From positions 128,001 to 192,000 of the IMG/VR virus record IMGVR_UViG_3300032321_001270: a stretch of 64,000 bases of DNA; one strand, written 5' to 3'. Position numbers and translations under genes: made by a program. Below, piece after piece: positions 8,559-63,613 of this stretch (position 1 is the first letter of the stretch; every line of letters begins with the position of its first letter). The notes under the pieces were generated by a model. It ran no database searches, had not been told where the DNA came from, and worked only from the letters and a program-made list of their open reading frames with translations. Source of the DNA: a virus. Taxonomy: Duplodnaviria > Caudoviricetes.

Positions 8559-9206
8559 TCAGTCAAGAACGCGCGCGACGACGTTCTCTCGCGTCACCGT
8601 CCGCTGATAGGTGATCCGGTACGATCCCGGCGGAAGCAGCCAATCGCCGTGCTCCGGGTGCGTCACCGTGTTGGGCTCGGTCAGCGTGAAGATCGGGCCG
8701 GCAAACTGCAGCAGCGCGACGGCGTCAGAAATGTGCATATGCACACCGTCAGTCGTCGGGTTCTGCCGGCGATCTTCCCACTCGGCGTTACGCAGATCAG
8801 ACCGCCAATCGGGCATCGACGGCTTGATGTTGAATTGCGCCGCGATCTGCACCGCAACCTCATCGCTTTCGGCGTCGAGCGGCGAGTAAACAGTTACGCC
8901 GTTGCCGTGGGCGAGGCAGTGCCGGCTGCCTTTTGTATTACCCTCGGCAAGTTGCATCGGGAACGTCGGTTCCGACTGCCTATAGAGCATCGGCGCCTTG
9001 GTAACCGTATCAATCAGCTGAATATAGATGTCGCCCTGCCGAACGGCGTCGCCAATGCTGGCGGCTTCGGGAAACTGCTGGGGCGCGTCGTTCTTAATCT
9101 TTTCCACCGCCTCCTGCGCCTCGCGAAGCTGGCGGACGGCGGCGTTGTTCGTAATCGGGTTGTCGAGAACTGCAGTACTCATCTTTGTAAACTCCTTGGA
9201 AATCAC
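8559..9206 (-). CDS. RQGD-motif protein (usual partner of DUF6745)
   Basis: RQGDIYI...LAEGNTKGSRHCL...HPEHGDWLLPPGSYRITYQR. Confidence 0.75.
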   Translation of the reverse strand: MISKEFTKMSTAVLDNPITNNAAVRQLREAQEAVEKIKNDAPQQFPEAASIGDAVRQGDIYIQLIDTVTKAPMLYRQSEPTFPMQLAEGNTKGSRHCLAHGNGVTVYSPLDAESDEVAVQIAAQFNIKPSMPDWRSDLRNAEWEDRRQNPTTDGVHMHISDAVALLQFAGPIFTLTEPNTVTHPEHGDWLLPPGSYRITYQRTVTRENVVARVLD

Positions 9207-10636
9207 GATGCGCCGACCAACCGAATTGGGTTGGCGGCATAGGGAACACGGGTAGTATTACCGGAATCGGCCATCCACGCCTGAGCTTCCACGCAACTAC
9301 TGATGTTGCGCGGCACGCCCAGAAAATAACGCCGCCCGGTAGAGCGGCAGAACAATACCATGCGGTTTTGCCGGCTGGTCTGTGCGTCAGAATTAGGCGG
9401 GCCAACCAGCATTTCAATCGTGTTATCAATGTCGTTTACTCGGCGATCGAGCACCGGGCAATCGGCTTCAGCGATAAAGCGGTCCCAGCCAAACTTCTCG
9501 ATGGCGAGGCGGCGCGTTTCTTCGTTGCGGATCTTCAGGATGTGCTGCGTCGAGAGCTTTTGCGGCTCTTCAACGATAGTCCTGCCGCCCTCGTCCATAT
9601 AGTGGCCGTCGTTGAACCACAGAGCCGTGCCATCCGACCATTCCACAGCGGGACCAGTCGTGTTATGGAGATTGCCTTCTTCATTAACATGCATCTTCGG
9701 GCGGGCAGCCAAGATGATGCAGGACTGCTGGAACGCGGCAAACGACGTGCAGTGGTGAAACACTTCGTGCTCCCACGTCATTTCTGGATCGTCGATCTTT
9801 AGCATCCGACACAGAATCTCGGCGTCAATTGCCTTGGGCGTCGCTCCGAGAAACACCGTTCCGGTAGAGTCGCTATCTTCGGGCCGCAACAGATCAGAGA
9901 TATCTAAAGCCCGACGCAGGTCGCCGATGGCGCTGAGCGTCGTGTTGCTATCCCAGATCGCCTTGTTGGCAATCTCGTTCTGCTTGATTTGAGCTCTATG
10001 GGTGTCGTTGGTTATTGTACGTCCGTCCCAACCGCGACTCGTCGTTTGAACTGTGTCCAAACCAGTCGTGTCGTTGAGGGTCGAGCGCAGCATTTGCATA
10101 ACCAGCGTCAGGTCGTTCGTCCGGTAAGCAACCTGCACGTTGTTGCTGTCGTTATTCTGCCGGTTGCGCCACCACCGGCGCATGAGGCCGTTGGTCGTAG
10201 CAACAAGCTGTTCTCGGGACAGATACTCTTCTCGCACCGCCCGCAGCCACGTACGAGTGAACTCGTTGTTGGTCTGCTGCCACCAGCGTTCCCGTCCCGT
10301 GTTCCACCGGGCCAGCGAGTCCTTACGGATCCGGCCGAGAAAACTTCGCTCTATACCCAGCTCGCGGCAGAGCGTTTCGGCGTATCGTTTGGCCATGCGG
10401 CCGCGGGCAACCGACACGGCGATCATGAACGCCAGCGGCGACTGCACCGTGTGAAACGTGACGTCCATCTTCTTATAGCGATCGCTACGATGCGTGCCGA
10501 TGCCGTTTTCGTATGCCGCGCGCAGGCAGGTTTGCGCCTTTTCGATATTCGGGGTGCCTTCTGTCAGCGTCTGCACCCAACGTTCAATCGTGTTGTGCAC
10601 AATCGTGCGATTAACTTTGGAGATTTTGGACTTCAT
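9203..10636 (-). CDS. DUF6745 domain protein
   Basis: LHNTTGPAVEWSDGTALWFNDGH, IRNEETRRLAIEKFGW and CRSTGRRYFLGVP motifs. Confidence 0.75.
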   Translation of the reverse strand: MKSKISKVNRTIVHNTIERWVQTLTEGTPNIEKAQTCLRAAYENGIGTHRSDRYKKMDVTFHTVQSPLAFMIAVSVARGRMAKRYAETLCRELGIERSFLGRIRKDSLARWNTGRERWWQQTNNEFTRTWLRAVREEYLSREQLVATTNGLMRRWWRNRQNNDSNNVQVAYRTNDLTLVMQMLRSTLNDTTGLDTVQTTSRGWDGRTITNDTHRAQIKQNEIANKAIWDSNTTLSAIGDLRRALDISDLLRPEDSDSTGTVFLGATPKAIDAEILCRMLKIDDPEMTWEHEVFHHCTSFAAFQQSCIILAARPKMHVNEEGNLHNTTGPAVEWSDGTALWFNDGHYMDEGGRTIVEEPQKLSTQHILKIRNEETRRLAIEKFGWDRFIAEADCPVLDRRVNDIDNTIEMLVGPPNSDAQTSRQNRMVLFCRSTGRRYFLGVPRNISSCVEAQAWMADSGNTTRVPYAANPIRLVGAS

Positions 10637-10637
10637 G

Positions 10638-11024
10638 TCAATTTGTTACTGGAGTAGTGGTAGCGACAAAACCGCATGCTAATTCGTTTTCTAAATTTTT
10701 GCCTCGCCCGAACATCCACGAGTGTTCTGGTTTAATGCACTCAAACCAGTCGGCCATTGTGGGTATAAGTCCAAGGTCTTCTTTCACGTGCTGTTCCCCT
10801 ACGTAGCGCACTGGCACAACGCGGCCGTCGCTATTTGTGATCGTCTTACCGAAGATCTTTTCTAATAAGAAAATACCCTCAGAGTGGTGCCGCAGCGCAC
10901 GGTGCCGGAAATCAGCCATGTGCGCTTTGGACTCATCAAACCAGTCGTGGATTGGCTGGTAGTCTTCTACGCAGCCGCCCCACCTGCTAACTGATGACAG
11001 TGCGTGGTGATATGGATGTGCCAT
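10638..11024 (-). CDS. DUF6915 family protein
   Basis: HPYHHALSS..RWGG...IHDWFDESK...RHRALRHHSEG...GEQHVKED. Confidence 0.85.
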   Translation of the reverse strand: MAHPYHHALSSVSRWGGCVEDYQPIHDWFDESKAHMADFRHRALRHHSEGIFLLEKIFGKTITNSDGRVVPVRYVGEQHVKEDLGLIPTMADWFECIKPEHSWMFGRGKNLENELACGFVATTTPVTN

Positions 11025-11053
11025 TATTTACGCAACCTTCATGTTATTTGACT

Positions 11054-11554
11054 TCAACAGGTTGAAAATATTCGACGCCGCGCGTCTTCTCTGGCGACAA
11101 ACATTTCAATTGTTTCTCGCTTTTCTCGGCCGCCGTAGCCAAACCGGTCGTCAACCCAGCGGTCTAGGCCGTAGCCGCGCCATTCAATATCGACAGTCTT
11201 CTTGTTGACTTTGGTGACAACATAGTGCGCATATCCATCGCCTTTCGGCACCACAAACAATTTGCCGACTTGCAGGCCGTCGGGCAGGCTGTTTGCGTAT
11301 GCTTTTGCGCTGCGATAATGTTCTTCGACGTGCTGCGTGTATTCGTCCGGCGGTCGGAACGACATAGTAACCGGCGTTAAAACATCAACACTGACAACAT
11401 ATTGGTCTGGCGTTAGTGCGTCGTTAATAATTACTTGCCGGCCGGCGGCGTAATACTTGATTGATTCCGGGTCCCAGCGCGACACGATGCCGTATTGCAT
11501 GTAACCATTCTGCAGCCATTTCACCTGATACAGGTCGGGGATTGGGGTGTGCAT
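11054..11554 (-). CDS. hypothetical protein
   Basis: ORF track; GDGYAHYVVTKV motif. Confidence 0.7.
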   Translation of the reverse strand: MHTPIPDLYQVKWLQNGYMQYGIVSRWDPESIKYYAAGRQVIINDALTPDQYVVSVDVLTPVTMSFRPPDEYTQHVEEHYRSAKAYANSLPDGLQVGKLFVVPKGDGYAHYVVTKVNKKTVDIEWRGYGLDRWVDDRFGYGGREKRETIEMFVAREDARRRIFSTC

Positions 11555-11557
11555 GTG

Positions 11558-11767
11558 TTACTCGCTTGTGTAAAGGTCAAGAACGTGATGTAAATCGCTG
11601 TGCGTAGCTGACCAATCCATTTTGTCCTCAACGACTTCGGCGGCGTGTTCCCATTCGTCGTTATCTTCTCGATCAAACATATCTGCTGACCACCACGCAA
11701 GGATGATGCTTTTGGTGCCGCCGCGTTTGGCCGACTCTAGGTTTCTAATTGCGTCGTCAATCGTCAT
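11558..11767 (-). CDS. hypothetical protein
   Basis: MTIDDAIRNL start with GAGGA SD. Confidence 0.6.
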   Translation of the reverse strand: MTIDDAIRNLESAKRGGTKSIILAWWSADMFDREDNDEWEHAAEVVEDKMDWSATHSDLHHVLDLYTSE

Positions 11768-11951
11768 CGGACTCTTCCTCAAACGTGTCGTACGGGGCTT
11801 CGCACGCTTCGACCAGTTCTTTGTCAGATAACCTATTTACGCGTTCTAGCAGCGCCGCACGCAGTTGGGCGCCGGTAACGTCTTCTCCGGTCTCGTCTGT
11901 GCTGCCGGGAACCTCAAACCCGAATGTGTAGGCGTGATTGTATTTTGTCAT
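11757..11951 (-). CDS. hypothetical protein
   Basis: YNHAYTFGFEV...CEAPYDTFEE; GAGGA SD. Confidence 0.7.
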   Translation of the reverse strand: MTKYNHAYTFGFEVPGSTDETGEDVTGAQLRAALLERVNRLSDKELVEACEAPYDTFEEESDDD

Positions 11952-12199
11952 CAGTCGTCCTCGTTTTCTCCTTGATTAGCCAGCCGCGGGACGATGCGTT
12001 CGTGCTGTTCGTCGGGGTCTCCACTCGCGGCCAGCATGTTCTCCAAAACATCGATTTCTTCGTCAAACGCTTCATCCGCCAGATCCATGTGGGTGAGGAT
12101 TTTATCTGTCGTTTTGGGATATTCCGTTACCGCCACACGAATAAATTCAAGAACTGTGATCACGGCATGATGCAGATCAGGTGAAAACTTCTTGGCCAT
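11951..12199 (-). CDS. hypothetical protein
   Basis: TAATG overlap with the upstream stop. Confidence 0.65.
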   Translation of the reverse strand: MAKKFSPDLHHAVITVLEFIRVAVTEYPKTTDKILTHMDLADEAFDEEIDVLENMLAASGDPDEQHERIVPRLANQGENEDD

Positions 12200-12648
12200 T
12201 ACCACTCCGATTCGCTGGTATTTACGTCGTTGACGCGTTCGTTGTGGACCATCCGTACTTTTCTGGTCGCGGTGTCAATTGTGATTTCGCCGTAGCTGCC
12301 GTCATTGATTTCCCAGCCGCCGGGCAGCAGGTCAAAGAATGCGTCACGAAACCTTTCGTACGCTTTTTCTGTGATGAGTGACGTTGGTTCAACCTTGGGA
12401 TCTTTGACGTATCGCATTTTGAACATGTGTTCGTTTAAAACCCGCTTGCTTTGGCTGGTTGTGCCCATGCTCACAGCCTGATCCGCCCGCGCGATCGGGT
12501 CATCAAAACGAAACTGCACAAAGTTGAAATCGCCTGAGTCGCCGCTGCCTTCGTATTCAGCCGTAATAGACGTAACACCGATGGCCTCAAACAGCGGGCA
12601 AATCTCTTTGAGCGTGTCGGCCGGCGTTAAGGTTTTTGCTTTTGCCAT
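12199..12648 (-). CDS. DUF6878 family protein
   Basis: GVTSITAEYEGSGDSG and GWEINDGSYGEITID motifs. Confidence 0.8.
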   Translation of the reverse strand: MAKAKTLTPADTLKEICPLFEAIGVTSITAEYEGSGDSGDFNFVQFRFDDPIARADQAVSMGTTSQSKRVLNEHMFKMRYVKDPKVEPTSLITEKAYERFRDAFFDLLPGGWEINDGSYGEITIDTATRKVRMVHNERVNDVNTSESEW

Positions 12649-12657
12649 AAAATCTCC

Positions 12658-13167
12658 TCAGTAAGACGCCAAGACGGTGCAGGGTTTACCAGTCTGCTTT
12701 TCTTTCTCTTCCGCCAACGTCACAAAATCTCTAAACGATTGCGTAACCCGCTCAGTCATGTCAGCGGCGTCGTCCGGGTAGAGCCGATGCTGGCGTTCAC
12801 GCACGGCTTCCTCTACCGTCATTGGTCGCGTAGTGTCAGTCTGCACTTCTGGGCCGATAACGTCGGCGCCGGCTGCGCGCATCATGTTTATCATCTCGGC
12901 CGCGAGTGTGTGTCCGCTGCCGGAATCGTGTCTCGCCGGTTCTGTTACGCGGGTCAACCGCTCGCGCATCACAGCGGCTGGAATTGCTGCGCGGCAGTCA
13001 TCGGCCTCGAACGCCTCGCGCACGAGAATTCGAGTGGCATAAGGTCCGCCGTGGTAAGCCTCGCGCAGATACCCGACGTTTCCCGACATAATCGAAAAAC
13101 CCGTGGCCTGCGCTTTTTTTTCTTCTTCCTCCATCCCGTCCCACTCCAAATAGATATCAATACCCAT
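12658..13167 (-). CDS. hypothetical protein
   Basis: MGIDIYL...GYLREAYHGG; TAATG overlap. Confidence 0.7.
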   Translation of the reverse strand: MGIDIYLEWDGMEEEEKKAQATGFSIMSGNVGYLREAYHGGPYATRILVREAFEADDCRAAIPAAVMRERLTRVTEPARHDSGSGHTLAAEMINMMRAAGADVIGPEVQTDTTRPMTVEEAVRERQHRLYPDDAADMTERVTQSFRDFVTLAEEKEKQTGKPCTVLASY

Positions 13168-13397: not shown

Positions 13398-13416
13398 GTG
13401 TGCTCCAGTTAAATGA

Positions 13417-13458
13417 GGAGGGCGCCGGGGCCGAAACCCCGACGCCCTCCATGGCGTC
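13417..13458 (-). promoter_or_regulatory. overlapping terminator-like hairpin and CsrA-type ANGGAN hairpin (putative RNA switch)
   Basis: 14-bp stem 13417-13430 / 13437-13450 with a UUCG-containing loop; alternative perfect 6-bp stem GACGCC-AUGGAG-GGCGUC at 13441-13458. Confidence 0.65.
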
Positions 13459-13484
13459 AAAAGTAGTTACCTAGAGACGATAGT

Positions 13485-13823: not shown

Positions 13824-13892
13824 GTCAATCTCCTTGAACTACCGAACGAACGCTGCAGCACGCGCTGCAGCCACCCGACTGGTTGTACTACT

Positions 13893-13942
13893 TGTATAGC
13901 CAATCAGGATTTGGAATCAATCCCAATTTCAACCGTGAAATT
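13893..13942 (-). promoter_or_regulatory. putative sigma70-like promoter with operator-like IR
   Basis: Minus strand TTGATT-16 nt-TATACA (13920-13893); AATTTC-N6-GAAATT at 13925-13942. Confidence 0.4.
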
Positions 13943-13956
13943 AGGGTATTTTGAAA

Positions 13957-14229: not shown

Positions 14230-15188
14230 ACGCCACCCATAGACATGAGACGTCTGGCTGGGACAAGCGCATCCATATTGACCGGCTGCGTTGTGGGCAT
14301 CAGGTGGTTTAGCGCGCGGGCTCTTTGGCTCCGCGGTACATTATACGCCTGAAACTGATCGTATCGTTCAATGGTTGCCGCAGGGAATATTGCGTCCTCT
14401 GTGACCGAGATACGGTCGTAGCCGTTAGTGGATGTGGGCGGCCTGAAAATGATGCGGCCGCCAATCACCATGCAATGACCGCCAAATACCAGCAGCGCGT
14501 TGATCGACTCGACATTTGCAATGACAGCAAAGTCAACGACCTTGAGCCGATTTTCGTCAAGTAGCGATGTGTCTGTGTTACCTTTGTATAAAGACAGTTG
14601 ATGCAGTTTGCTGGAAAGCACCTGCGCGTTGCCGGCGACAGTGACGTAACCCTGTAGCGTAGATTTGCACACGTGTGCGTCGCCTGCAATATACGCAGCG
14701 CCCTCCATCGACGTCATCATGACAACCGCTTCGCCGGCAATCCTCGAATCGCCGCGCATGGTGCAGCTTTTAACCGTCGGGTTTCCGAGCACAATTGCAC
14801 GATCCTGCAACACAGTGGAGCCCAGTAGCGTTCCGCCAATTACTCGCGCCATATGCAGCACGCGCGAATCATCAGCCGCCCGCGCTTGACCACCAACATA
14901 CGCCGTGTTTGTTACTTTTACGCGATCAGTGAGATGGGCATAACCACAAACCTGCGCTTTGTGCGTAATCTCTGCTCTACCTTCTACTACTGCGTGGTGA
15001 TATACCTGCGCAAATTTATTTACAAACGCTGTATCAGCTACTTTGGCTGTATCTGCAACCCAGCCGCCGCCGTTGGCGTGCCGGTGCGCAAAAACTCGAC
15101 CAAGACCGTCTTTAAAATCGTGCTTGGACGCCCGTTTCTTTCGAATCTTCTTCGCGGTCGCCGTAGACGATGTTTCCTCCATTCTCAC
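14226..15188 (-). CDS. left-handed beta-helix (hexapeptide repeat) protein
   Basis: HRHANGGGWVADTAKVADTAFV followed by regular A.V.g.A.I hexapeptides. Confidence 0.8.
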   Translation of the reverse strand: MRMEETSSTATAKKIRKKRASKHDFKDGLGRVFAHRHANGGGWVADTAKVADTAFVNKFAQVYHHAVVEGRAEITHKAQVCGYAHLTDRVKVTNTAYVGGQARAADDSRVLHMARVIGGTLLGSTVLQDRAIVLGNPTVKSCTMRGDSRIAGEAVVMMTSMEGAAYIAGDAHVCKSTLQGYVTVAGNAQVLSSKLHQLSLYKGNTDTSLLDENRLKVVDFAVIANVESINALLVFGGHCMVIGGRIIFRPPTSTNGYDRISVTEDAIFPAATIERYDQFQAYNVPRSQRARALNHLMPTTQPVNMDALVPARRLMSMGGV

Positions 15189-16129: not shown

Positions 16130-16708
16130 TCAGTCTTCCTCGTCTTCGTTAACCATCTCGTCAATATTGAACATTGTCACAAGATCTCGTGGCAGCGTAC
16201 TTTCGACCGCGGCGACTGTGTCGGGTATTTCGTACTCCTGTATCGCGCCGTTGTCGTAGATGCCGCAGAAATTTAATCCCGGCTCAAAAAAGTACGCTTT
16301 GACATTAAAGCCGCGAGACTGTCGCATGTACTCAAAGAATTCAACCGGCGGGGACCACGCGGAATCAAACCGAAGATTTACACGAGTGGCTGTCGGTCGT
16401 AGCGCCTGCCGACGCGGAGCATCTTTTTCGCGGCCCACATCCCATTTTGTACCCCAGTGACCCACTTGCCATTCGTACCAGTTTCTAGCGCCGTAGAGCT
16501 GAATGTTTTGCTGCTCTTGCGCCTCTAACGTTATTTGCTCAGGCGATCCAGCCGGCCCAGCACAACCAGCTACGGTATTTTTTAGTTCTGGCGGGCACGG
16601 CATAAATGTGCCCATAAGTTGTCCGCTATTCCATGCGCGCACAATGTTATTTAATTCTTTCAGATCTTCGTGTTTAAACGTCACATAGTTGGTGCACCAG
16701 TTTGGCAT
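16130..16708 (-). CDS. DUF1281/YubB ferredoxin-like domain protein
   Basis: MPNWC.N, NWYEW...HWGTKWD, FDSAWSPP and FEPGLNFCG motifs. Confidence 0.85.
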   Translation of the reverse strand: MPNWCTNYVTFKHEDLKELNNIVRAWNSGQLMGTFMPCPPELKNTVAGCAGPAGSPEQITLEAQEQQNIQLYGARNWYEWQVGHWGTKWDVGREKDAPRRQALRPTATRVNLRFDSAWSPPVEFFEYMRQSRGFNVKAYFFEPGLNFCGIYDNGAIQEYEIPDTVAAVESTLPRDLVTMFNIDEMVNEDEED

Positions 16709-16722
16709 AGCGTCTCCGATCA

Positions 16723-16769
16723 GCAATCCGCAGCTGCGGGGCAGTGACGCCCCGCAGCCGCAGTATTGC
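16723..16769 (-). promoter_or_regulatory. long intergenic hairpin without U-tract
   Basis: Perfect 10-bp core 16733-16742 / 16749-16758, extendable to about 20 bp with G-U pairs on the minus strand. Confidence 0.6.
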
Positions 16770-16776
16770 CAATACT

Positions 16777-18261
16777 TTAGCCCTTGGCGGGCGCGGCCAC
16801 GCGGCGGCGACCGGCGACCGGCACAGCGGCCTTACCGACACGCGTATAGATACCGCGCGTATCCGCAGACAGGCAGCGGCCCTCGGCCCACTGGCGCAAG
16901 CGCTCGATCTGCTCAGCAGACGTAACCGAAACCGGAACCACGTTCTGCGCCGCTTCGACGAGCGGGATGTCGAGCAGCGCCGCCAGACGGCAGCAGCTCT
17001 TGATCTCGGCGCCAGTCCAGTTGGTGTCGTCGGGGCGCTCCTGTGAAGCGTCAACGCCAAACTGATTTAGATAGATATCCCAGATCGCCGACCGCTGGTC
17101 AGGGCCGGGCAGATCCACGAAGAAAATGCCGTCGAAACGCTCGGCGCGGGCGAACGGCGCGGGCAGCTGGCTCGCGTCATTGCAGGTGCCGATAAAGAAC
17201 ACGTCCGACGTGTGATCGTTCAACCACGTTAACAGCGTACCGAATAGACGCGCCGACACACCCGAGTCAGTCTGGCCGGAGCTACCGACGCCCGCCAGAC
17301 CCTTCTCGATCTCGTCGACGAACAGCACGCACGGCGCCATCGCGTCGACCTGTCGAAGCGCACGCCGCATGTTACCCTCGGACTCGCCCACGAACTTGCC
17401 CATGAGCGAACCGAAATCGAGCATGACGGTCGGACGACCTACTTCGTTACCAAGTGCCTTGGCAAACTGCGACTTGCCGCAGCCCGGCGGGGACAGCAGC
17501 AGTACACCCTTGGGGCGCTTGTCCACGTTCGTTTCGCCCTGACGCCGCATGGCGCGCAGGCAGAACGACTTGAGATTTTCAAGGCCGCCAAGGTTCTCGA
17601 AATTCGCGTCGCCGCGATACAGGGTCATGGTGCCGCTCTTTTCGAGCGTCTGCGCCTTGATGCCCCAGATCGTGTCCGGCGACAGTTTGTTATTACGCAC
17701 CAGCGACAGCGCGTACGCGTTCTCGGCCTCCTGCCGTGTCAGACCGCGGGAAGCGTCTACGACAGCGTCAACTTCCTGCGCGGTCGGCTTGGTAAACGCG
17801 CAGCCTTCCGGGAACAGATCGTTGCATACCGTCGTGAGCTGCGAGAGATCCGGCAACTCGTGATGAACCACCGTGAACAGCTTTTCAACCTCGGGCTGGA
17901 GCTGCAGAACCGGCGCCACAATGATGATGTGCTTGCCGTCGCCCTTGCCCTGCACAACCCGATTTGCCAGCGCCTGCAGAACCTCGGGGTTACCAAGGAA
18001 CCGGTGGAAGTTCTTCAGCACCAGAAGCATCGGCTGCTTCGGCTGCGGCTGGTCAAGAAACCGGAGAGCCTGCAGCGGGCCGGGAGCCGGAGCAATACCC
18101 GAATATAACTGGCGGTCGATGTCCCAGACGTCGAAGCCCCATTCCTTCTCTTCGGTTACCCTGCGAATCGACGCAATCGCATCGTCGCACTCCTGCGATT
18201 CAACCCAGATGCCGGAAAAGCCGGCGCAGACCAGCTCTTTGATTTCTTTTTCGAGTGACAT
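16777..18261 (-). CDS. Ycf46-type AAA+ ATPase
   Basis: Walker A SPPGCGKS, Walker B VLFVDEIEK, RAERFD arginine finger; inactive N-terminal domain as in Ycf46. Confidence 0.9.
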   Translation of the reverse strand: MSLEKEIKELVCAGFSGIWVESQECDDAIASIRRVTEEKEWGFDVWDIDRQLYSGIAPAPGPLQALRFLDQPQPKQPMLLVLKNFHRFLGNPEVLQALANRVVQGKGDGKHIIIVAPVLQLQPEVEKLFTVVHHELPDLSQLTTVCNDLFPEGCAFTKPTAQEVDAVVDASRGLTRQEAENAYALSLVRNNKLSPDTIWGIKAQTLEKSGTMTLYRGDANFENLGGLENLKSFCLRAMRRQGETNVDKRPKGVLLLSPPGCGKSQFAKALGNEVGRPTVMLDFGSLMGKFVGESEGNMRRALRQVDAMAPCVLFVDEIEKGLAGVGSSGQTDSGVSARLFGTLLTWLNDHTSDVFFIGTCNDASQLPAPFARAERFDGIFFVDLPGPDQRSAIWDIYLNQFGVDASQERPDDTNWTGAEIKSCCRLAALLDIPLVEAAQNVVPVSVTSAEQIERLRQWAEGRCLSADTRGIYTRVGKAAVPVAGRRRVAAPAKG

Positions 18262-19510: not shown

Positions 19511-19553
19511 CCCGCTGTGGTACCGGCCATCCGTGACCAGTACCTGCAGCGGG
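19511..19553 (-). promoter_or_regulatory. CsrA-type binding hairpin (CACGGAUG apex)
   Basis: About 17-bp stem (G-U pairs only on the minus strand) capped by C-ACGGAU-G. Confidence 0.65.
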
Positions 19554-26476: not shown

Positions 26477-26549
26477 AGCCGGCGGTCGGACTCGAACCGA
26501 CGACCTACTGATTACAAATCAGTGGCTCTACCAACTGAGCTACACCGGC
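26477..26549 (-). tRNA. tRNA-Thr(UGU)
   Basis: Full cloverleaf: acceptor GCCGGTG/CGCCGGC, D arm GCTC/GAGC, anticodon stem ACTGA/TCAGT with loop TTTGTAA, T arm GTCGG-TTCGAGT-CCGAC. CCA is not encoded. Confidence 0.97.
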
Positions 26550-31655: not shown

Positions 31656-31884
31656 GTGCGATATGTTTTATCCGTTTGACAAGTTCGCGCAACGCCGCAA
31701 GCGCTGGGTTTTCGCGAACCTTGGGCGTGAGAGCGCCCGGGTCGATGTTTTGAGATGAGAGGCCGCTAAGTTCTTCTTGGCGGCAAGATTCTAAATAGTG
31801 ATGCCAGTTATCGTAGGCGTCACGGTCTTCGTCTGATTCGTACGGTCTGTATGGTTCGTCAAGAAGTCTGTCGTTCCAACCCAT
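31639..31884 (-). CDS. hypothetical protein
   Basis: ORF track, operon packing. Confidence 0.6.
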   Translation of the reverse strand: MGWNDRLLDEPYRPYESDEDRDAYDNWHHYLESCRQEELSGLSSQNIDPGALTPKVRENPALAALRELVKRIKHIAHVDKN

Positions 31885-32053
31885 CTTTCTTTTTGTCCTC
31901 GTTTTTGACTAATAGTTCACCGCGCACGATGGACGTGGCTTTGGGCGCGGTTAAGCCGATCTTTACTCTATCGCCGGTAATCCCCAGCACTTTGACGACA
32001 ATGCCGTTACCAATTACGACTTCCTGTTCCTTCTTCCTTGAGAGTACAAGCAT
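31859..32053 (-). CDS. csrA: carbon storage regulator CsrA/RsmA
   Basis: MLVLSRKKEQEVVIGNGIVVKVLGITGDRVKIGLTAPKATSIVRGEL aligns with CsrA; the R6- and R44-equivalent RNA-binding residues are retained. Confidence 0.93.
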   Translation of the reverse strand: MLVLSRKKEQEVVIGNGIVVKVLGITGDRVKIGLTAPKATSIVRGELLVKNEDKKKDGLERQTS

Positions 32054-32063
32054 GATGGCTCCA

Positions 32064-32735
32064 TCATTCTGTTGCAGATTTTTGCAGTAACTCAACCACG
32101 GACTTCGTGTTGCCGTTTTGCAAATCTAACGCCGCGAGTTGTTTGATAAGTAATCCAGTTTTCAAACGAATTGACTGGTTAATGTCTTCTGTTTTTCCGG
32201 CCTCTACGTCATACACAGCGTTGAACATCTCAGGATCATCCGAGAAGTCTTGAATGGAGGGCGACACGCGGGCGGCTCTGAGTGCCACGCGCAGGATGTC
32301 GGGGGCGTTGATGATTCCTTCACTGTCGAGCACGGAACCGATGTAGGCGCGTATCTCATCTGTAAACGGTTCCGGGTCTTCATCGTCGGGCGGGGAGATT
32401 AGCAAGGCTTCTGTAATCCCCCACGCCACTTCTTCGGCGTCAGCGGGATCCCACATATCTGGTCGGTATGTGTCGCCGCCTAGAACGTTGCAAAAATTAA
32501 TGAAATCGGGCAGGCTTTTAAAGAACTGATCTGTGGTGAGAAGCTGAATGGCGACCAGCAGCTTGTCGAGTGACAACTGGGGAAGCTCGACGTCAAACTC
32601 TTCTTCAATTTCGAGGGTGATGGTGGCTGGGTCCCAGTGCAACGCTTCCATCCCAAATTTGTCAAGAAACAGCGTCAGTAGTACTGTCGCAAACGTCTCC
32701 CGGCTCTTCCACGCTTCCTGCATTATTTTTGACAT
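32064..32735 (-). CDS. conserved hypothetical protein
   Basis: ORF track; well-formed acidic helical protein. Confidence 0.75.
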   Translation of the reverse strand: MSKIMQEAWKSRETFATVLLTLFLDKFGMEALHWDPATITLEIEEEFDVELPQLSLDKLLVAIQLLTTDQFFKSLPDFINFCNVLGGDTYRPDMWDPADAEEVAWGITEALLISPPDDEDPEPFTDEIRAYIGSVLDSEGIINAPDILRVALRAARVSPSIQDFSDDPEMFNAVYDVEAGKTEDINQSIRLKTGLLIKQLAALDLQNGNTKSVVELLQKSATE

Positions 32736-34792: not shown

Positions 34793-35045
34793 AACTCCCT
34801 TGTAACGCGTGGAAAGGGAGCTACTGATACGATACAGTAGCGACAATAAATATGCCGCGTTTTTGGGAAAAATTTAGCGTCGTCTGGAATTCGCGAATTG
34901 CGAACATCGTTGCAATTAAACGACTTACGGCGCAAAGTATCGTGTTCTAGAAAATGGAAAATGCAACCGCCGCCCCGCGCTGACCTAGGGCATGGAGCCC
35001 GTTGGCCGCGTGGAACGCAGCCGTTCAGTCAGCGCAGGGCGGCGG
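34793..35045 (-). ncRNA. structured intergenic RNA / leader (three-way junction plus SD-sequestering hairpin)
   Basis: 18-bp stem 34967-34984 / 35028-35045 enclosing two hairpins; further hairpins at 34795-34820 and 34820-34841. Confidence 0.5.
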
Positions 35046-55103: not shown

Positions 55104-55118
55104 AGTTACGTCTTCTCC

Positions 55119-55940
55119 TTAAAATCCACCTTGGGTGTACTGTTTATCGAGCAGGGACTGAATCTTGGCGGCACGTTGGCTGACGGCACCCGGCGTGATA
55201 TTTAATCGGCGCGCAATGTCTTGCGTGCTGGCTTTACGCCGGCCATTACGTCCTAACGTCATATCGGCAATCAACTTGTCGACCGGCCCAAGATCGTCAT
55301 AGACAAAGTTGAACCATGCATCCGCAGAGCGTGTGCTGTTTGGAATGTTACTAGCTACATCGCCGCCGTACGCTTCATCGTCGCCAACTTCGCGCGTCGT
55401 CATGCCCTCGGATACCGGCTGGTTGAATGCGCGAATTTTTTGTATCCGTTTTTTTGACAACCCGGTTTGGTCCGCGAGTTCGTCGTCTGTCGGGTCGCGC
55501 CCAAGTTGATCGCGCAGTTCGCCTTCACTTTCGTTGAGTCGCGAATAATCCAAACCGACTTGCTCTGGGATAGTTATGATATTTTGTGCCTGCGCTGACA
55601 GTCGCCGTAAGCTCTGCAGTTGAGACAGAAGATGCGTGCGCACATTCCCGCGCTTGGGGTCGTACGTGTCGAGCGCTTTTAAGGCCATCATTTTCGCGCG
55701 AGACCGAATGGTTGGGCTCGCGTTCTGTCCGGCATAGCTCATGACGGCTGTGTCTATAACGGGCTGCAGCGTCCCCAACAACGCCGTATTCGTTTCGGGC
55801 GTTTTGGTCGTCTGCCACGTTTGGTACGCCGTATCAAAAGCTGAGCTGACACCTGTCGGTTTTTTGTCAGAAAAAGGGGCAGGAATATCGCCCAAAATGG
55901 ACGGCATGCCAGTAGGTTTTTTTACAGTATCGTTTTGCAT
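55119..55940 (-). CDS. sigma-70 family RNA polymerase sigma factor
   Basis: Region 2 KALDTYDPKRG, region 3 LGRDPTDDELADQTGLSKKRI, region 4 HTH STQDIARRLNITPGAVSQR. Confidence 0.85.
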   Translation of the reverse strand: MQNDTVKKPTGMPSILGDIPAPFSDKKPTGVSSAFDTAYQTWQTTKTPETNTALLGTLQPVIDTAVMSYAGQNASPTIRSRAKMMALKALDTYDPKRGNVRTHLLSQLQSLRRLSAQAQNIITIPEQVGLDYSRLNESEGELRDQLGRDPTDDELADQTGLSKKRIQKIRAFNQPVSEGMTTREVGDDEAYGGDVASNIPNSTRSADAWFNFVYDDLGPVDKLIADMTLGRNGRRKASTQDIARRLNITPGAVSQRAAKIQSLLDKQYTQGGF

Positions 55941-58930: not shown

Positions 58931-61900
58931 TCACCTACCTTGCCGTGAGCCAGTAGCATTTGCCATGTCGACGGGTGGCCCACCGTCGGGCGTGTCTTCC
59001 ATACGCCGGCCGGAAGCTGCAAGCACAGCTTCAGACAGACCCTGCAGCACAAGTGTGCCGTTGATATTCATGTCGCCTCCGCCGGCCCCACCCATCCCAG
59101 CTGCTCGACGTTCTTGTTGAGCAACTTGATCTTTGAGGAAGTTGTAACGTACTTGATCCTTCTCGTCGGCGAAGTACTCCTGACCGTTCCAGCCGCGTTT
59201 CTTTTTACCTTCAAGGTCGTGAAGACGCTGCGTCGCTGCCTGCAGCGGATCTTCAGACCCAGCATTCAGCATCGCCTGTTCAGCCAACAACTTGATGTGC
59301 GGTTTCTGAACGACTTGCGAAACGCTACCGTCGGGGTTTGTGACGTTAACGCGTTTCGCGCCGTTCTTTTTGAAATCTGCTTTTTCTTGTGCCGTGCCGT
59401 AACGTTCGACGTCGAGAGCGGCCTGCTCTTCTGTGTAGTTTGGATTGTGCGGTATAAACACACGTTCAGATGCGTCCTGCGTGCCGCCAAACATAGTCCA
59501 CGTCGCTTCGCCGCGCACCTCGCGCATTGAGATATCTAAACCGGGCAGTTTGCCCTTGGCGCCAAACGGATCGTATGTTGTGATTTGATCGCCGGTTCGC
59601 GGCGCAGAAATGCTTTGCCGGCGAGACTGCAGCTCTTCCCACTGTTTTTGGTCTTCCGGGTTATCAAATTTTGTTTCTGTTCTTCCCCTGCCGCCAGCTG
59701 ACCAATACGTTTTGCCGCGTTTCTGCAACGCTGCCATTTCGGCGTCGACCTCTTTCAGCGCGTCAGCTTTGCTCGTTACGTGTGTTGTGGCTTGGCCGAC
59801 GCCGCCGGCAGAAACTGGTCCGCCCGTCGCTGGGCCGTGGCCGCGGCGATTGAGCTGTTGCACTTGCTCCGGCGTCAGATTCTGCGACGACACGCCCTGT
59901 TGCGCGGCGTTGCTTTCGTTGATCGCGTCTTTAATGCGTCCCACGTTTGCGCGTTCAGACTCGTCAAGACGCCACGAGTACAAGCCGTTTTGTGCGCTCT
60001 CTAGCGCCGCCATACCTTCACGCTGCGCTTCCGGCGTGAACTTTTTAAACAACGATACGGCGTCGGCGTTCGGTAGCGTTAGCAATAGCTGCCGTTTTGT
60101 TTTGTCCATCATCGCGGCTTTCATGCCCGCGCCAGACGGATCGGATCCGACCTCGTCTAATAGTTTTTGCTGTTCAGTCGTAACCTTATCGGTGGCTTCG
60201 GCCACACCCATGCCGCGCTCGCGCTTTGCGTTGTTAGCGCCAGTTAGAATATTGTTTAACCGCTCTGTCACTTTTTCTGGGTCAGAACCCATGACGGCGA
60301 CTAATTCTTTACGCGCCTGCGCCTGAGCCTCTTCGGGGTCCATACCCTGTAGTACAAATTGCTGCGCGAGCTGGGCTGTTATTTTTTTGCCCATAATCTC
60401 GGCGCGCTTTTCGGCTGTTTCTCCGGCGGTCCCGCCCATCTGGTTCACCGCGACTTCAGCTGCGGCGACGCTGATCATGCGCATGCGCTTTTTACGTTGC
60501 GTCTCAAACTGCGCGTCCGACATACCCTTTGGACGCAACTTCTCATATTCAGCGCGGTCGTAGCCTTGTTCCATCTTGTCATAGACGGCTTTGCCGACAT
60601 CGCCAACGACGGCATTAGCTTTCGCGGTTGGCCGCTTTTGCGCCTTGGCTACATCTTCCGGTGTTTGTTCAAGGCCGGCGCCAGCTAAACCACCAATGTC
60701 TTGCGCAACCCGCAACGATTGCGCGATGGCGCGCGCCTGCGCTTGCTTCTCGTCGCTAAGTCCGCCGCCAAACAACCCGCGCTTCATTTGATCTTCAAAC
60801 GACTTGGAGTCTGAGCTGAGCGCCGCGGTGGCAAACTTTTCAATCTGCTCTTTAGACGCCCCCGGCCCGAACATTTGCTCTGCCATGGCGCGAGCCGCAG
60901 CGTTTACGTCTTCTTTGTTACCGGTATTGAACCCCTTCATGATCAATTCGGCTTGTTTGCGCTGCTGCTCGCTTTGTTTCTTTTCAGCGTCAGTTGTGCC
61001 CTTGGCCGTATCGGCAGACTTCATGATGGCGCGATTTTTAATCTCGTCGATTTTGGCCGGGTCGAGCGGTTCTTTTGCATCAACCCCCGCAAGTTTTTTC
61101 AACTGCGTCGCCTCGGCGCCGGCAGGGTTTTTTTGCGCAGCTTCTGCCAGCTTTTCAATCTGGCTCGGCGTGATCGTCGCCTGCGTGTACATTTTGGCTG
61201 CTGCGACCAAACCTTCTTGCATATCTGGGGCGTAACTCTGCAGCAAGTCGTCTTCCGACGTAACATTAAAAATAGCTTTCAACGCGTCGGACCGCGTCCC
61301 GGCGTTATCGTCGGCGAGTTTTTCAAGCTCCTCGCCAACGCGCTGCATAGTTGTTGATTCTTTACCCTTGGCCGACGCCGCAAATCGTTTTGCTCGGCGC
61401 TGATTGACTACCATCTTTGTGTCGGCTTCAGACAGCGCGTCTTTGTCGTACTGTTGTTTCAACGCCTCTATGCTGACGCCAGTACGCTGCTGGGCGATCG
61501 CACTTGTTTCAGAATATGTTGCAAGCAAGTTGTCGCGGCGTTTTTCAGCCGTGTCGCCGTAAATAGCCTCAAAGTACTGATTAGCGGCCTTCTCCGCCGC
61601 GCCCTGTTTCATGTTGCCGCCAGCGCTGCTCTTGAAGTATTTAACTAACTCTTCTCGTCCGCGCTTCTCTAACGTTGCAACGCGTTCCTCAGAAGACATG
61701 TCGGCCGTCTCGTCGATCATTATGCCAGTCATCGCATACGACAACCCGCCGGCCAACGCCGTGTTTTTTGATCTAAAGTCTGCGTCTGACATACCCGCGG
61801 GTTTGAGCTTTTTAAACTCTGCGCTGCCCATGCGATCTTGAATAACACCCTCGTGCGCGCGCGACAAATTCCTCTGCAACTCAAAACGTTGCGCCTTATA

Positions 61901-63613
61901 GGCGTACCCGGCATTGAGATATTCTTCTGTACCAATCTGGTCATTTTGATAAGCGCGGAAAAGTCTGTCGTCCGCACCACCCTCGCGGGCCATGTTATAG
62001 ATGGCCTTCATGCCGCCACGACCTGCCTGCTCAGACAGGTTGTAAGATTTTCCCTTATACTCGTATGTGTCGGAACCGGTGCGATACGCCTGCATCGCCG
62101 CTTCAAGTTGTGTGCCTTTGTATTTGTCTGGGTTTTCAGACACCATGCGATTCAATACTGCCATGCCGCGGCCAACCGCGGAAGCGTCGGCACGGGTAGA
62201 CAAAGCGGCAGATCTCGATTCGGCTTCTGCGCGATTCAGCTTCCCGAAACCCGGCTTTTCAAACACACCCGCGTCGGCCATCGCTTGCCCGCGCATCAGA
62301 TCGCTAGTCATGCCTTTTTCGGCTGTTACTTCTGATAATCCAAGTTGCCGCGCCTGTGCTTTTTTCTCGTACATCAAGGCGTTTAGATTTTTCAGATCTG
62401 TATTTGAATCGCGCGCGGCCATACGCATCTCACGCACGAGCGATTCAACCTTACCGGCACCCATGCTGCTTTGCGCCCCGTTTGTCAGGTGCTGCAAATT
62501 TGCAATGAGTTCTTGAATCGGCGCGTTGGGGTTGCCGTTGTCGCCGAATATTTCACGAATAGCCGACACTGCGCCGTTGTATTCTTTGACAGCTTTTGAA
62601 ACGTTCTTAGCGTCGAGCGCGTTAGCGGCGAGACCGAACCCTTCCATCTGTTCGATTTCTTCGGCCGACTTTGCCCGTTTGTCGCCGGCTTTGTACTTGT
62701 CGATTTCCGAGAACGTATCGCCGAGGCGTTTTTTAAACTCGGGAAGTTTGTCCGCGAGCATAATTTTGCGTTCTTCGTCTGACGCGTTGGCGTAGTCGTA
62801 GTCGCGTTCCATTAGTTCTGAGTGGCCGAACTGCTGCGCAAGACTCGTCATGGTCTTGTCATCGCGCTTACCGCGGCCGATCGCTTTTACCCGGTCTGCC
62901 GGCTTGAGCGCGCCGATACTCTGCGGAAGCCGGCCTTGCTGAAACAACACGTCCATCATCTCGCCGCTGGCCACTGCACCAAACCCATGCATCTCGTCTA
63001 GATTGGCATCGGGTCCGTACAAGTTTTGATACATATTCTGCGAGAACTGCTGCAGCGATTCAGATGACATCCTGCGGCCGCCAGTTGCGGCGTCTGGCCT
63101 AAAAAAACCAACCCGCGAGGCGGCAGACGCAAGCGCGGTCGGATCGCCGCGCCGACCAAACATAATCCCCTCTAAATTTTCAGCACCAATCTGCGCGGCA
63201 GCAAACTGTTTAAATATCGGGTTATTCAGTACCGCAGCGCCGACATTGGCATGCTCTCGGTCGAGCCGCGTTAATTCTTGTCCGCCGTTAACAACCCGCT
63301 GAAACCCAAGCAATTTTTTAGCGACTTGCTCGTTGCCGGCCATATTAGCTGCTTGCACGGCGGCGGCACCGTGGCGCTGGTAGCGGGCTGCTGTATACTG
63401 GTCCAGCCGCGCTTGTCCGGGCGCCTGATGCGCCAAAAAGGCGTCCTCGCCGAACAGCCCCTGTACGATCCCGGGGCCGTATAAATTAGCCATATACCCG
63501 AACGCGTCGTCAACGTGGGCGGCGTTCTGAAACGGCGAATAAACAGGCGGTGCGTACGGATTATTGGTGTCGTTTTGTACGTACCCGGCGGCGCCGTACT
63601 GGCTTGCTTTCAT
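58931..63613 (-). CDS. tape measure-like protein
   Basis: 1560-aa Ala/Gln/Lys/Glu-rich helical protein upstream of tube-like and hub genes. Confidence 0.75.
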   Translation of the reverse strand: MKASQYGAAGYVQNDTNNPYAPPVYSPFQNAAHVDDAFGYMANLYGPGIVQGLFGEDAFLAHQAPGQARLDQYTAARYQRHGAAAVQAANMAGNEQVAKKLLGFQRVVNGGQELTRLDREHANVGAAVLNNPIFKQFAAAQIGAENLEGIMFGRRGDPTALASAASRVGFFRPDAATGGRRMSSESLQQFSQNMYQNLYGPDANLDEMHGFGAVASGEMMDVLFQQGRLPQSIGALKPADRVKAIGRGKRDDKTMTSLAQQFGHSELMERDYDYANASDEERKIMLADKLPEFKKRLGDTFSEIDKYKAGDKRAKSAEEIEQMEGFGLAANALDAKNVSKAVKEYNGAVSAIREIFGDNGNPNAPIQELIANLQHLTNGAQSSMGAGKVESLVREMRMAARDSNTDLKNLNALMYEKKAQARQLGLSEVTAEKGMTSDLMRGQAMADAGVFEKPGFGKLNRAEAESRSAALSTRADASAVGRGMAVLNRMVSENPDKYKGTQLEAAMQAYRTGSDTYEYKGKSYNLSEQAGRGGMKAIYNMAREGGADDRLFRAYQNDQIGTEEYLNAGYAYKAQRFELQRNLSRAHEGVIQDRMGSAEFKKLKPAGMSDADFRSKNTALAGGLSYAMTGIMIDETADMSSEERVATLEKRGREELVKYFKSSAGGNMKQGAAEKAANQYFEAIYGDTAEKRRDNLLATYSETSAIAQQRTGVSIEALKQQYDKDALSEADTKMVVNQRRAKRFAASAKGKESTTMQRVGEELEKLADDNAGTRSDALKAIFNVTSEDDLLQSYAPDMQEGLVAAAKMYTQATITPSQIEKLAEAAQKNPAGAEATQLKKLAGVDAKEPLDPAKIDEIKNRAIMKSADTAKGTTDAEKKQSEQQRKQAELIMKGFNTGNKEDVNAAARAMAEQMFGPGASKEQIEKFATAALSSDSKSFEDQMKRGLFGGGLSDEKQAQARAIAQSLRVAQDIGGLAGAGLEQTPEDVAKAQKRPTAKANAVVGDVGKAVYDKMEQGYDRAEYEKLRPKGMSDAQFETQRKKRMRMISVAAAEVAVNQMGGTAGETAEKRAEIMGKKITAQLAQQFVLQGMDPEEAQAQARKELVAVMGSDPEKVTERLNNILTGANNAKRERGMGVAEATDKVTTEQQKLLDEVGSDPSGAGMKAAMMDKTKRQLLLTLPNADAVSLFKKFTPEAQREGMAALESAQNGLYSWRLDESERANVGRIKDAINESNAAQQGVSSQNLTPEQVQQLNRRGHGPATGGPVSAGGVGQATTHVTSKADALKEVDAEMAALQKRGKTYWSAGGRGRTETKFDNPEDQKQWEELQSRRQSISAPRTGDQITTYDPFGAKGKLPGLDISMREVRGEATWTMFGGTQDASERVFIPHNPNYTEEQAALDVERYGTAQEKADFKKNGAKRVNVTNPDGSVSQVVQKPHIKLLAEQAMLNAGSEDPLQAATQRLHDLEGKKKRGWNGQEYFADEKDQVRYNFLKDQVAQQERRAAGMGGAGGGDMNINGTLVLQGLSEAVLAASGRRMEDTPDGGPPVDMANATGSRQGR

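Follow-up and report, generated by a model that had tools for sequence, protein, structure and literature searches.

A conserved terminator hairpin overlapping a candidate CsrA-type site in a 205-kb phage genome

Can a CsrA-family protein decide whether transcription runs past the end of a phage gene? The question is raised by two overlapping RNA hairpins in a single 205,188-bp virus genome (54% GC), of which we analysed bases 128001-192000 (64,000 nucleotides; hereafter the window, to which coordinates refer unless the genome is mentioned). An earlier note on this DNA had proposed that a small hairpin with an ANGGAN loop competes with a terminator-like stem and that CsrA, encoded in the same window, gates read-through into the operon behind it by binding the small hairpin. 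The minus-strand sequence of the element reads as quoted there.

The locus and its relatives

In a simple gene model of the whole genome, 230 of the 236 genes lie on the minus strand, which is therefore the sense strand throughout. The element is intergenic on this strand and sits in an 87-nt gap between two minus-strand genes, bordered by the stop codon of the upstream gene (13487-13485) and the start codon of the next (13397-13395). The upstream gene, P0002 (13485-13823, minus strand), encodes a protein of 112 aa in which Cys-rich and Arg-rich parts come after a signal peptide, the cysteines occurring in clusters; the protein had no match in Pfam or PHROG, and homologues were found with tblastn at the same place in 16 related loci. 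The downstream gene, P0003 (13167-13397, minus strand; 76 aa), is kept in some relatives only; in those without it, the P0004 homologue begins about 20 nt after the terminator. Behind P0003 a series of tightly packed genes follows (9203-13167, minus strand), comprising a member of the P0004 family, DUF6878, small ORFs, DUF6915 and DUF6745; the three DUF genes are indeed located downstream of the element, as had been said before, and read-through would reach P0003 and all members of this series. Most of the neighbouring proteins are of unassigned function (Pfam, PHROG). BLAST found no counterpart of the region among deposited phage genomes, and Rfam gave no family at the site at gathering thresholds and only chance-level hairpin matches at E-values up to 10.

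Some other features of the sequence can be mentioned here. A DUF3800-VIII RNA motif (Rfam RF03075, 47.7 bits) is found at 34969-35043 and a tRNA gene at 26477-26549, both on the minus strand. The two ends of the record (genome 1-920 versus 204282-205188) form a 920-bp direct repeat of only 86% identity, which is too diverged for simple terminal redundancy; the repeat could represent paralogous ends or two variants joined in assembly.

A search with the protein encoded by the next-but-one gene, P0004, yielded 32 viral and 80 metagenomic loci, mostly on freshwater contigs, several of which are near 200 kb. The element was sought in these loci without bias, as the strongest hairpin upstream of the P0004 homologue. 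The same element was recovered in almost every relative above ~50% P0004 protein identity, always 3' of a P0002-type gene and with P0003 intervening in some relatives only. The alignment used below (A2) contains 30 distinct versions of the element, taken from related uncultivated phages.

The large hairpin and the P0002 cassette

The large hairpin (fold B; 13417-13450, minus strand) has a stem of 15 bp, a UUCG loop and a predicted free energy of -33.6 kcal/mol for the hairpin alone (RNAfold). Its presence had been described correctly, with a stem of 14 bp; RNAfold gives 15 pairs, since an extra U-G pair closes the UUCG tetraloop. In its 101-nt context the hairpin has a z-score of -3.5, none of 200 shuffled sequences folding as well, and it is among the handful of strongest hairpins in the 205-kb genome. 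It is weaker on the plus strand because of its U-G pairs. Over the 30 versions, 97.5% of the cells that make up the stem are paired and seven pairs have compensatory changes on both sides, values that were reached by none of 500 shuffles, while the upper stem and the loop vary freely and the length of the stem varies as well. The covariation in related phages that the earlier note had named as a check is thus clearly present for this hairpin. A DNA operator at the large inverted repeat was ruled out, since its spacer varies between 14 and 20 nt and yet stays complementary, indicating that selection acts on the RNA fold.

The stem is followed by UCAUUUAAC (13408-13416, minus strand), a poor and degraded U tract, and a consensus terminator scan of the window did not list the site. 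Most relatives have CUUUUUAC, UUUUUUAC or something similar at this position, i.e. a canonical U tract, and the alignment columns 62-64 directly after the stem are nearly invariant (T in 27-29 of the 30 versions). The degraded tail suggests that the terminator in the window itself is probably weaker than those of the relatives. Taken as a family, and judged by its sequence conservation, the large hairpin is near certain to be a conserved Rho-independent (intrinsic) terminator, as the description of a terminator-like stem had implied.

Two more strong hairpins were observed in the window. The first (2788-2820), which we used as a control, is a strong terminator with -29 to -33 kcal/mol on either strand and a U tract behind it; in relatives, a complementary A-rich stretch lies 5' of the stem, a bidirectional-type design. 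Its stem, too, is nearly invariant among close relatives (five relatives compared). The second (16728-16763, minus strand) is a very strong intergenic hairpin of 16 bp (-33.2 kcal/mol) without U tract, placed between the genes at 16777-18261 and 16130-16708.

In the interval from the stem to the next start codon a promoter scan detected nothing promoter-like, with the limit that phage-type promoters are undetectable by such a scan. In several relatives the terminator is only ~20 nt away from the next gene, which leaves no room for a promoter and suggests that the downstream genes are transcribed through the terminator. Some read-through would then have to occur, and the terminator would be leaky or regulated.

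The terminator is not the only conserved element around P0002. A sigma-70-like promoter is found upstream (13893-13920, minus strand; TTGATT, a 16-nt spacer and TATACA), for which the relatives have TTGCAA, 16 nt and TATACA (alignment A3); it is followed by a leader hairpin (~13852-13871, minus strand), the arms of which covary in the relatives (A3), and by a conserved Shine-Dalgarno (SD) sequence AAGGAG (13830-13835, minus strand). The upstream region (13824-13956, minus strand) contains another conserved hairpin, located 5' of the promoter-like element.

In phages, a moron-type cassette consists of a promoter, a gene and a terminator. The promoter-like element, the leader, P0002 and the terminator together would make up such a moron-like cassette, and the distribution of the element types over the P0004 tree is mosaic, which looks like exchange of the whole cassette between phages. 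What differs from morons is that the P0002 cassette resides in a lytic-looking 205-kb genome and that its terminator carries an extra conserved hairpin. The mosaicism is apparent from the P0004 protein tree, in which two element types are interleaved: two relatives with almost identical P0004 proteins (L002 and L004) have different element alleles, and the same holds for the window compared with L001. Recombination therefore moves the element together with the P0002 cassette, the apparent breakpoint being directly after the terminator. In this respect the element goes with the upstream cassette for the secreted protein and not with the DUF operon named in the earlier note.

The small hairpin and its competition with the terminator

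The small hairpin (fold A; 13441-13458, minus strand), the candidate antiterminator, consists in the window of a 5' arm (13458-13453), a C-G closed hexaloop AUGGAG (13452-13447) with the GGA at 13450-13448, and a 3' arm (13446-13441). The loop with its closing pair, CAUGGAGG, fits the core CANGGANG of CsrA/RsmE sites. Predicted energies are -5.1, -9.7 and -12.6 kcal/mol for stems of 4, 6 and 10 bp, the last including four extra U-G pairs. The 6-bp stem that had been described is present in the window, while among the relatives only the inner four pairs (CGCC/GGCG) are conserved: these hold in 26-30 of the 30 versions, and together with the hexaloop they are kept in 24, whereas the outer two pairs are paired in ~45% of the versions and display no covariation. 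When the RNA is folded as a nascent transcript with 14-22 nt of 5' flank, 22 of the 30 versions have the hexaloop hairpin, its GGA unpaired, as their minimum-energy structure. Extending the upstream side by another 40 nt, into the 3' part of the preceding ORF, brings in pairings that compete with the small hairpin in this genome; ribosomes finishing that ORF would, we infer, probably clear them.

Since the GGAG and the GGCG are also terminator bases, only the conserved ACGCCA directly 5' of the terminator stem (13452-13457, minus strand) is independent evidence for the small hairpin; its CGCC (13456-13453) forms the 5' arm and its last A (13452) is the first base of the loop. The information content rises from 0.05-0.6 bit in columns 2-15 of the alignment to 0.9-1.5 bit at ACGCCA, the N of A-N-GGA is a low-information column (0.65 bit), and the following GGAGGGCG reaches 1.4-2.0 bit. 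ACGCCA as an extension of the terminator stem was ruled out, as no complement to it is present after the stem, unlike at the flank of the control terminator (2788-2820).

The covariation check gave a mixed outcome for the small hairpin: next to the conserved inner pairs there is effectively one compensatory type, and the covariation score was reached by 15 of 500 shuffles. This type is UGCC/GGCA; all four distinct versions with a GGCA stem have UGCC upstream, and the same four versions carry a matching U in the 3' arm of the terminator, a three-way change that is expected only if both folds matter but that is probably a single event.

Two other candidate functions of these bases were discarded. 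The ATG in the loop (13452) was ruled out as the start of a small ORF, since relatives read ACG or AAG, and TTGACG at 13460 was ruled out as a promoter as it is not conserved and no -10 element follows. The motif GCCANGGAGGGC has one copy in the genome and is not repeated elsewhere in it. A motif scan over all viral contigs gave mostly chance matches, with a real hairpin in 22.

Four relatives (L001, L004, L005 and L007) read UAGAGGGCG and have neither the GGA nor the CGCC, the terminator being intact. The upper stem and loop of these versions resemble those of L008, which does have the GGA hairpin, and the GGA-less allele therefore looks derived, by a small deletion. Two further versions keep AUGGAG without the CGCC arm, and one relative keeps the upper hairpin only. 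The distribution suggests that the GGA hairpin is widespread and probably ancestral, yet dispensable. The conserved hexaloop hairpin has, in our estimate, about an even chance of being a CsrA-family site.

One alternative is that the P0002 cassette ends in an ordinary terminator that is partly leaky and works without any protein, the small hairpin only slowing down folding and thereby setting a fixed level of read-through, or ACGCCA being conserved for a reason unrelated to that hairpin. Much of the above is compatible with it: fold B is the only strongly supported structure and the covariation of fold A is marginal, the loss allele shows the GGA to be dispensable, the GGAG is required by the terminator stem anyway, and the stem of the control terminator is nearly invariant among close relatives as well. 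What it leaves unexplained is the A at position 1 of the loop with a free N at position 2, the exact hexaloop geometry of a CsrA site and the presence of the same module at other conserved sites in this csrA-encoding phage (see below), and for these reasons we consider a protein-free terminator unlikely.

The two folds are mutually exclusive, as had been claimed, because bases 13450-13441 belong to both. Fold B is ~24 kcal/mol more stable than fold A, and even a fold-A state that keeps the upper hairpin is 8-19 kcal/mol worse than fold B on finished transcripts. Equilibrium thus favours the terminator and only a kinetic, co-transcriptional switch is possible.

The earlier note had added that the CUCC freed in fold A could mask the next SD sequence. 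The SD GGAG of the next gene (13403-13406, minus strand) contains a second GGA, 44 nt after the first, and when fold A is enforced in this genome it is predicted to be paired with the freed CUCC (P = 0.98-1.0); by our reading of the constrained folds, the same pairing occurs in about half of 23 versions. The masking is thus predicted here, but in this model it would be transient and generic to any anti-SD-like tail.

It follows that CsrA might bind the hexaloop hairpin and act on translation or stability instead of termination, the first downstream gene being repressed on read-through RNA either by a dimer that bridges the GGA and the SD GGAG 44 nt downstream or by the freed CCUCC covering that SD. 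Such an action would be in line with the position of the second GGA, with the predicted pairing of the SD in the window and in about half of the relatives, and with translational repression being the usual mode of CsrA (PMC7652899), but finished transcripts favour the fold in which the GGA is hidden, any CCUCC will pair with any SD so that the helix is not specific, and the element is constant among relatives that differ in the downstream gene and in its SD. We regard an effect restricted to translation or stability as improbable.

csrA, other GGA hairpins and a possible mechanism

The csrA gene announced for the window (31859-32053, minus strand) is real: it encodes 64 aa, matches the Pfam CsrA family with an E-value of 8e-20 and can be aligned along its entire length with the solved structures of CsrA and RsmE. 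The protein retains L2, L4, R6, K7, the GxxAPK motif and R44, of which L2, L4, R6 and R44 align with the solved CsrA/RsmE proteins. All five near-complete relatives tested contain csrA, including two with the GGA-less allele, and for that reason the presence of csrA does not discriminate with respect to the presence of the GGA hairpin. The start codon of csrA and its SD (within AUGAUGGAGCCAUCAUG) lie in an inverted repeat of 6-7 bp (32052-32070, minus strand), suggesting that the csrA SD may be structured and may itself be a GGA site.

Hairpins of this type are enriched in the genome. On the sense strand of the whole genome we counted 32 ANGGAN hexaloops with stems of at least 4 bp, compared with 14.1 +/- 3.6 in dinucleotide shuffles, and 17 with stems of at least 5 bp, compared with 5.7 +/- 2.3; such stems flank 5.6% of the ANGGAN sites versus 2.1% of all hexamers. 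Half of the 32 hairpins (16) are intergenic and about a dozen have the GGA 9-15 nt before a start codon. Known high-affinity CsrA/RsmE sites consist of an ANGGAN hexaloop on stems of 4 bp or fewer, with two sites per target, and by the properties published for such sites the GGA-hexaloop hairpins of the phage match them (PMC7652899).

In about a dozen genes the SD (A-N-GGA-G) is presented by the hexaloop of a short hairpin (4-5 bp) located a few nucleotides 5' of the start codon, for instance at genome positions 204807-204822, 526-541, 91549-91564, 62443-62458, 59339-59354, 14944-14957 and 1144-1157 and at window position 55111-55124 (all minus strand). Outside the window, at genome 32018-32063 (minus strand; L122:338-383, minus strand), two 7-bp hairpins with the hexaloops ACGGAU and AUGGAU lie 6 nt apart, the second GGA being 11 nt before a start codon. 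Both loops are kept in four relatives, in which the first stem is wholly swapped for other complementary arms, and on the strength of its sequence this tandem pair is a textbook two-site CsrA-type leader.

The window contains a second intergenic CsrA-type hairpin (19519-19544, minus strand), with a 10-bp stem and a C-G closed hexaloop ACGGAU, 70 nt before the next start. In four relatives GGUC, A(C/U)GGAC and GACC are kept and the lower stem covaries, a pattern that supports the idea of a putative GGA-hairpin regulon of the phage.

A factor different from CsrA could also read the conserved flank, be it a second RNA-binding protein, a small RNA, an RNase or a protein that binds the ACGCC ... 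GGCGT repeat as DNA. This would fit with GCCANGGAGGGC being unique in the genome, unlike a regulon site, and with the absence of an Rfam match and of assigned functions for most nearby proteins. We consider it improbable: a conserved, asymmetric loop in which a single position is free typifies RNA recognition and not a DNA palindrome, the spacer of the large inverted repeat stays complementary at lengths of 14-20 nt, pointing to selection on the RNA fold, and no alternative ligand can be named.

We tentatively favour, at somewhat less than an even chance, a leaky terminator with a CsrA-family site as its antiterminator hairpin, so that antitermination would be gated by CsrA. The earlier interpretation as a CsrA switch thereby keeps the conserved terminator, the overlapping A-N-GGA-G hairpin and a csrA gene in the phage and in the five relatives tested, and loses the outer pairs of the small hairpin and, in one allele, the GGA. 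The element would be the 3' end of a self-contained unit with a promoter, a leader hairpin and a gene for a small secreted Cys-rich protein; this P0002 unit sits inside a one-directional phage genome. On the nascent RNA, ACGCCA and the first bases of the 5' arm of the terminator would form the small hairpin first, with 4-6 bp and a C-G closed A-N-GGA-G hexaloop. A CsrA dimer, either that of the phage or that of the host, may then clamp this hairpin, so that, during passage of the polymerase over the U tract, its 3' arm and the GGAG could not be used to form the eight lowest pairs of the terminator. With CsrA bound, transcription would be expected to continue into P0003, P0004 and the DUF genes, a direction and timing that we infer from the arrangement of the two folds; without CsrA, the far more stable terminator would displace the small hairpin and transcription would stop.

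On a wider scale, and here we are more doubtful, this family of ~200-kb freshwater phages could run a CsrA regulon of its own, with some fifteen GGA-hexaloop sites located mostly at ribosome-binding sites and, at the present locus, merged with an intrinsic terminator. csrA genes carried by phages have been compiled before, with host genes such as CRISPR-Cas as their presumed targets, and none of these papers names a target in a phage genome (PMC8450108, PMC7366521). What CsrA is known to affect is translation, the decay of mRNA, a riboswitch and a single Rho-dependent terminator, and no intrinsic terminator is known to be under its control (PMC7652899). If the regulon exists, the present locus would be the first case of a Rho-independent terminator gated by CsrA, and also the first cis target to be defined for a CsrA that a phage encodes. 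A direct action of CsrA on an intrinsic terminator would extend its repertoire by one mechanism. The element and the other conserved GGA hairpins are concrete RNAs of ~40 nt that can be studied in vitro with the 64-aa protein, even though the phage is uncultivated.

The candidate site shares with the hairpins bound by CsrA/RsmE (RsmE-hcnA, SELEX ligands, CsrB/RsmZ repeats) the C-G closed ANGGAN hexaloop with the core CANGGANG, a short stem (4 bp conserved here) and a second GGA in a nearby SD (PMC7652899). It differs from them in that it is not located at the SD, in that its 3' arm and GGAG double as the 5' arm of a strong terminator, and in that the flanking bases depart from the (A/U)...(U/A) consensus. 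Antiterminators that overlap terminators and are stabilised by a protein are represented by RAT with BglG, SacY or LicT, and attenuators are also controlled by HutP, PyrR and TRAP. As in the RAT/BglG type, a weak hairpin here has bases in common with an intrinsic terminator of much higher stability, and a bound protein could choose between the folds during transcription, as a switch that can only be kinetic; in contrast to that type, the candidate protein belongs to the CsrA family, no PRD or ligand control is evident, and the site is located in an intergenic gap behind a complete ORF instead of in a 5' leader. The only described effect of CsrA on elongation is that on E. coli pgaA, where it exposes rut sites and promotes Rho-dependent termination (PMC7652899). 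In the proposed model, as at pgaA, the binding of CsrA would remodel the RNA and alter whether transcription continues, but whereas termination is promoted at pgaA, in the phage CsrA would block a Rho-independent terminator and promote read-through.
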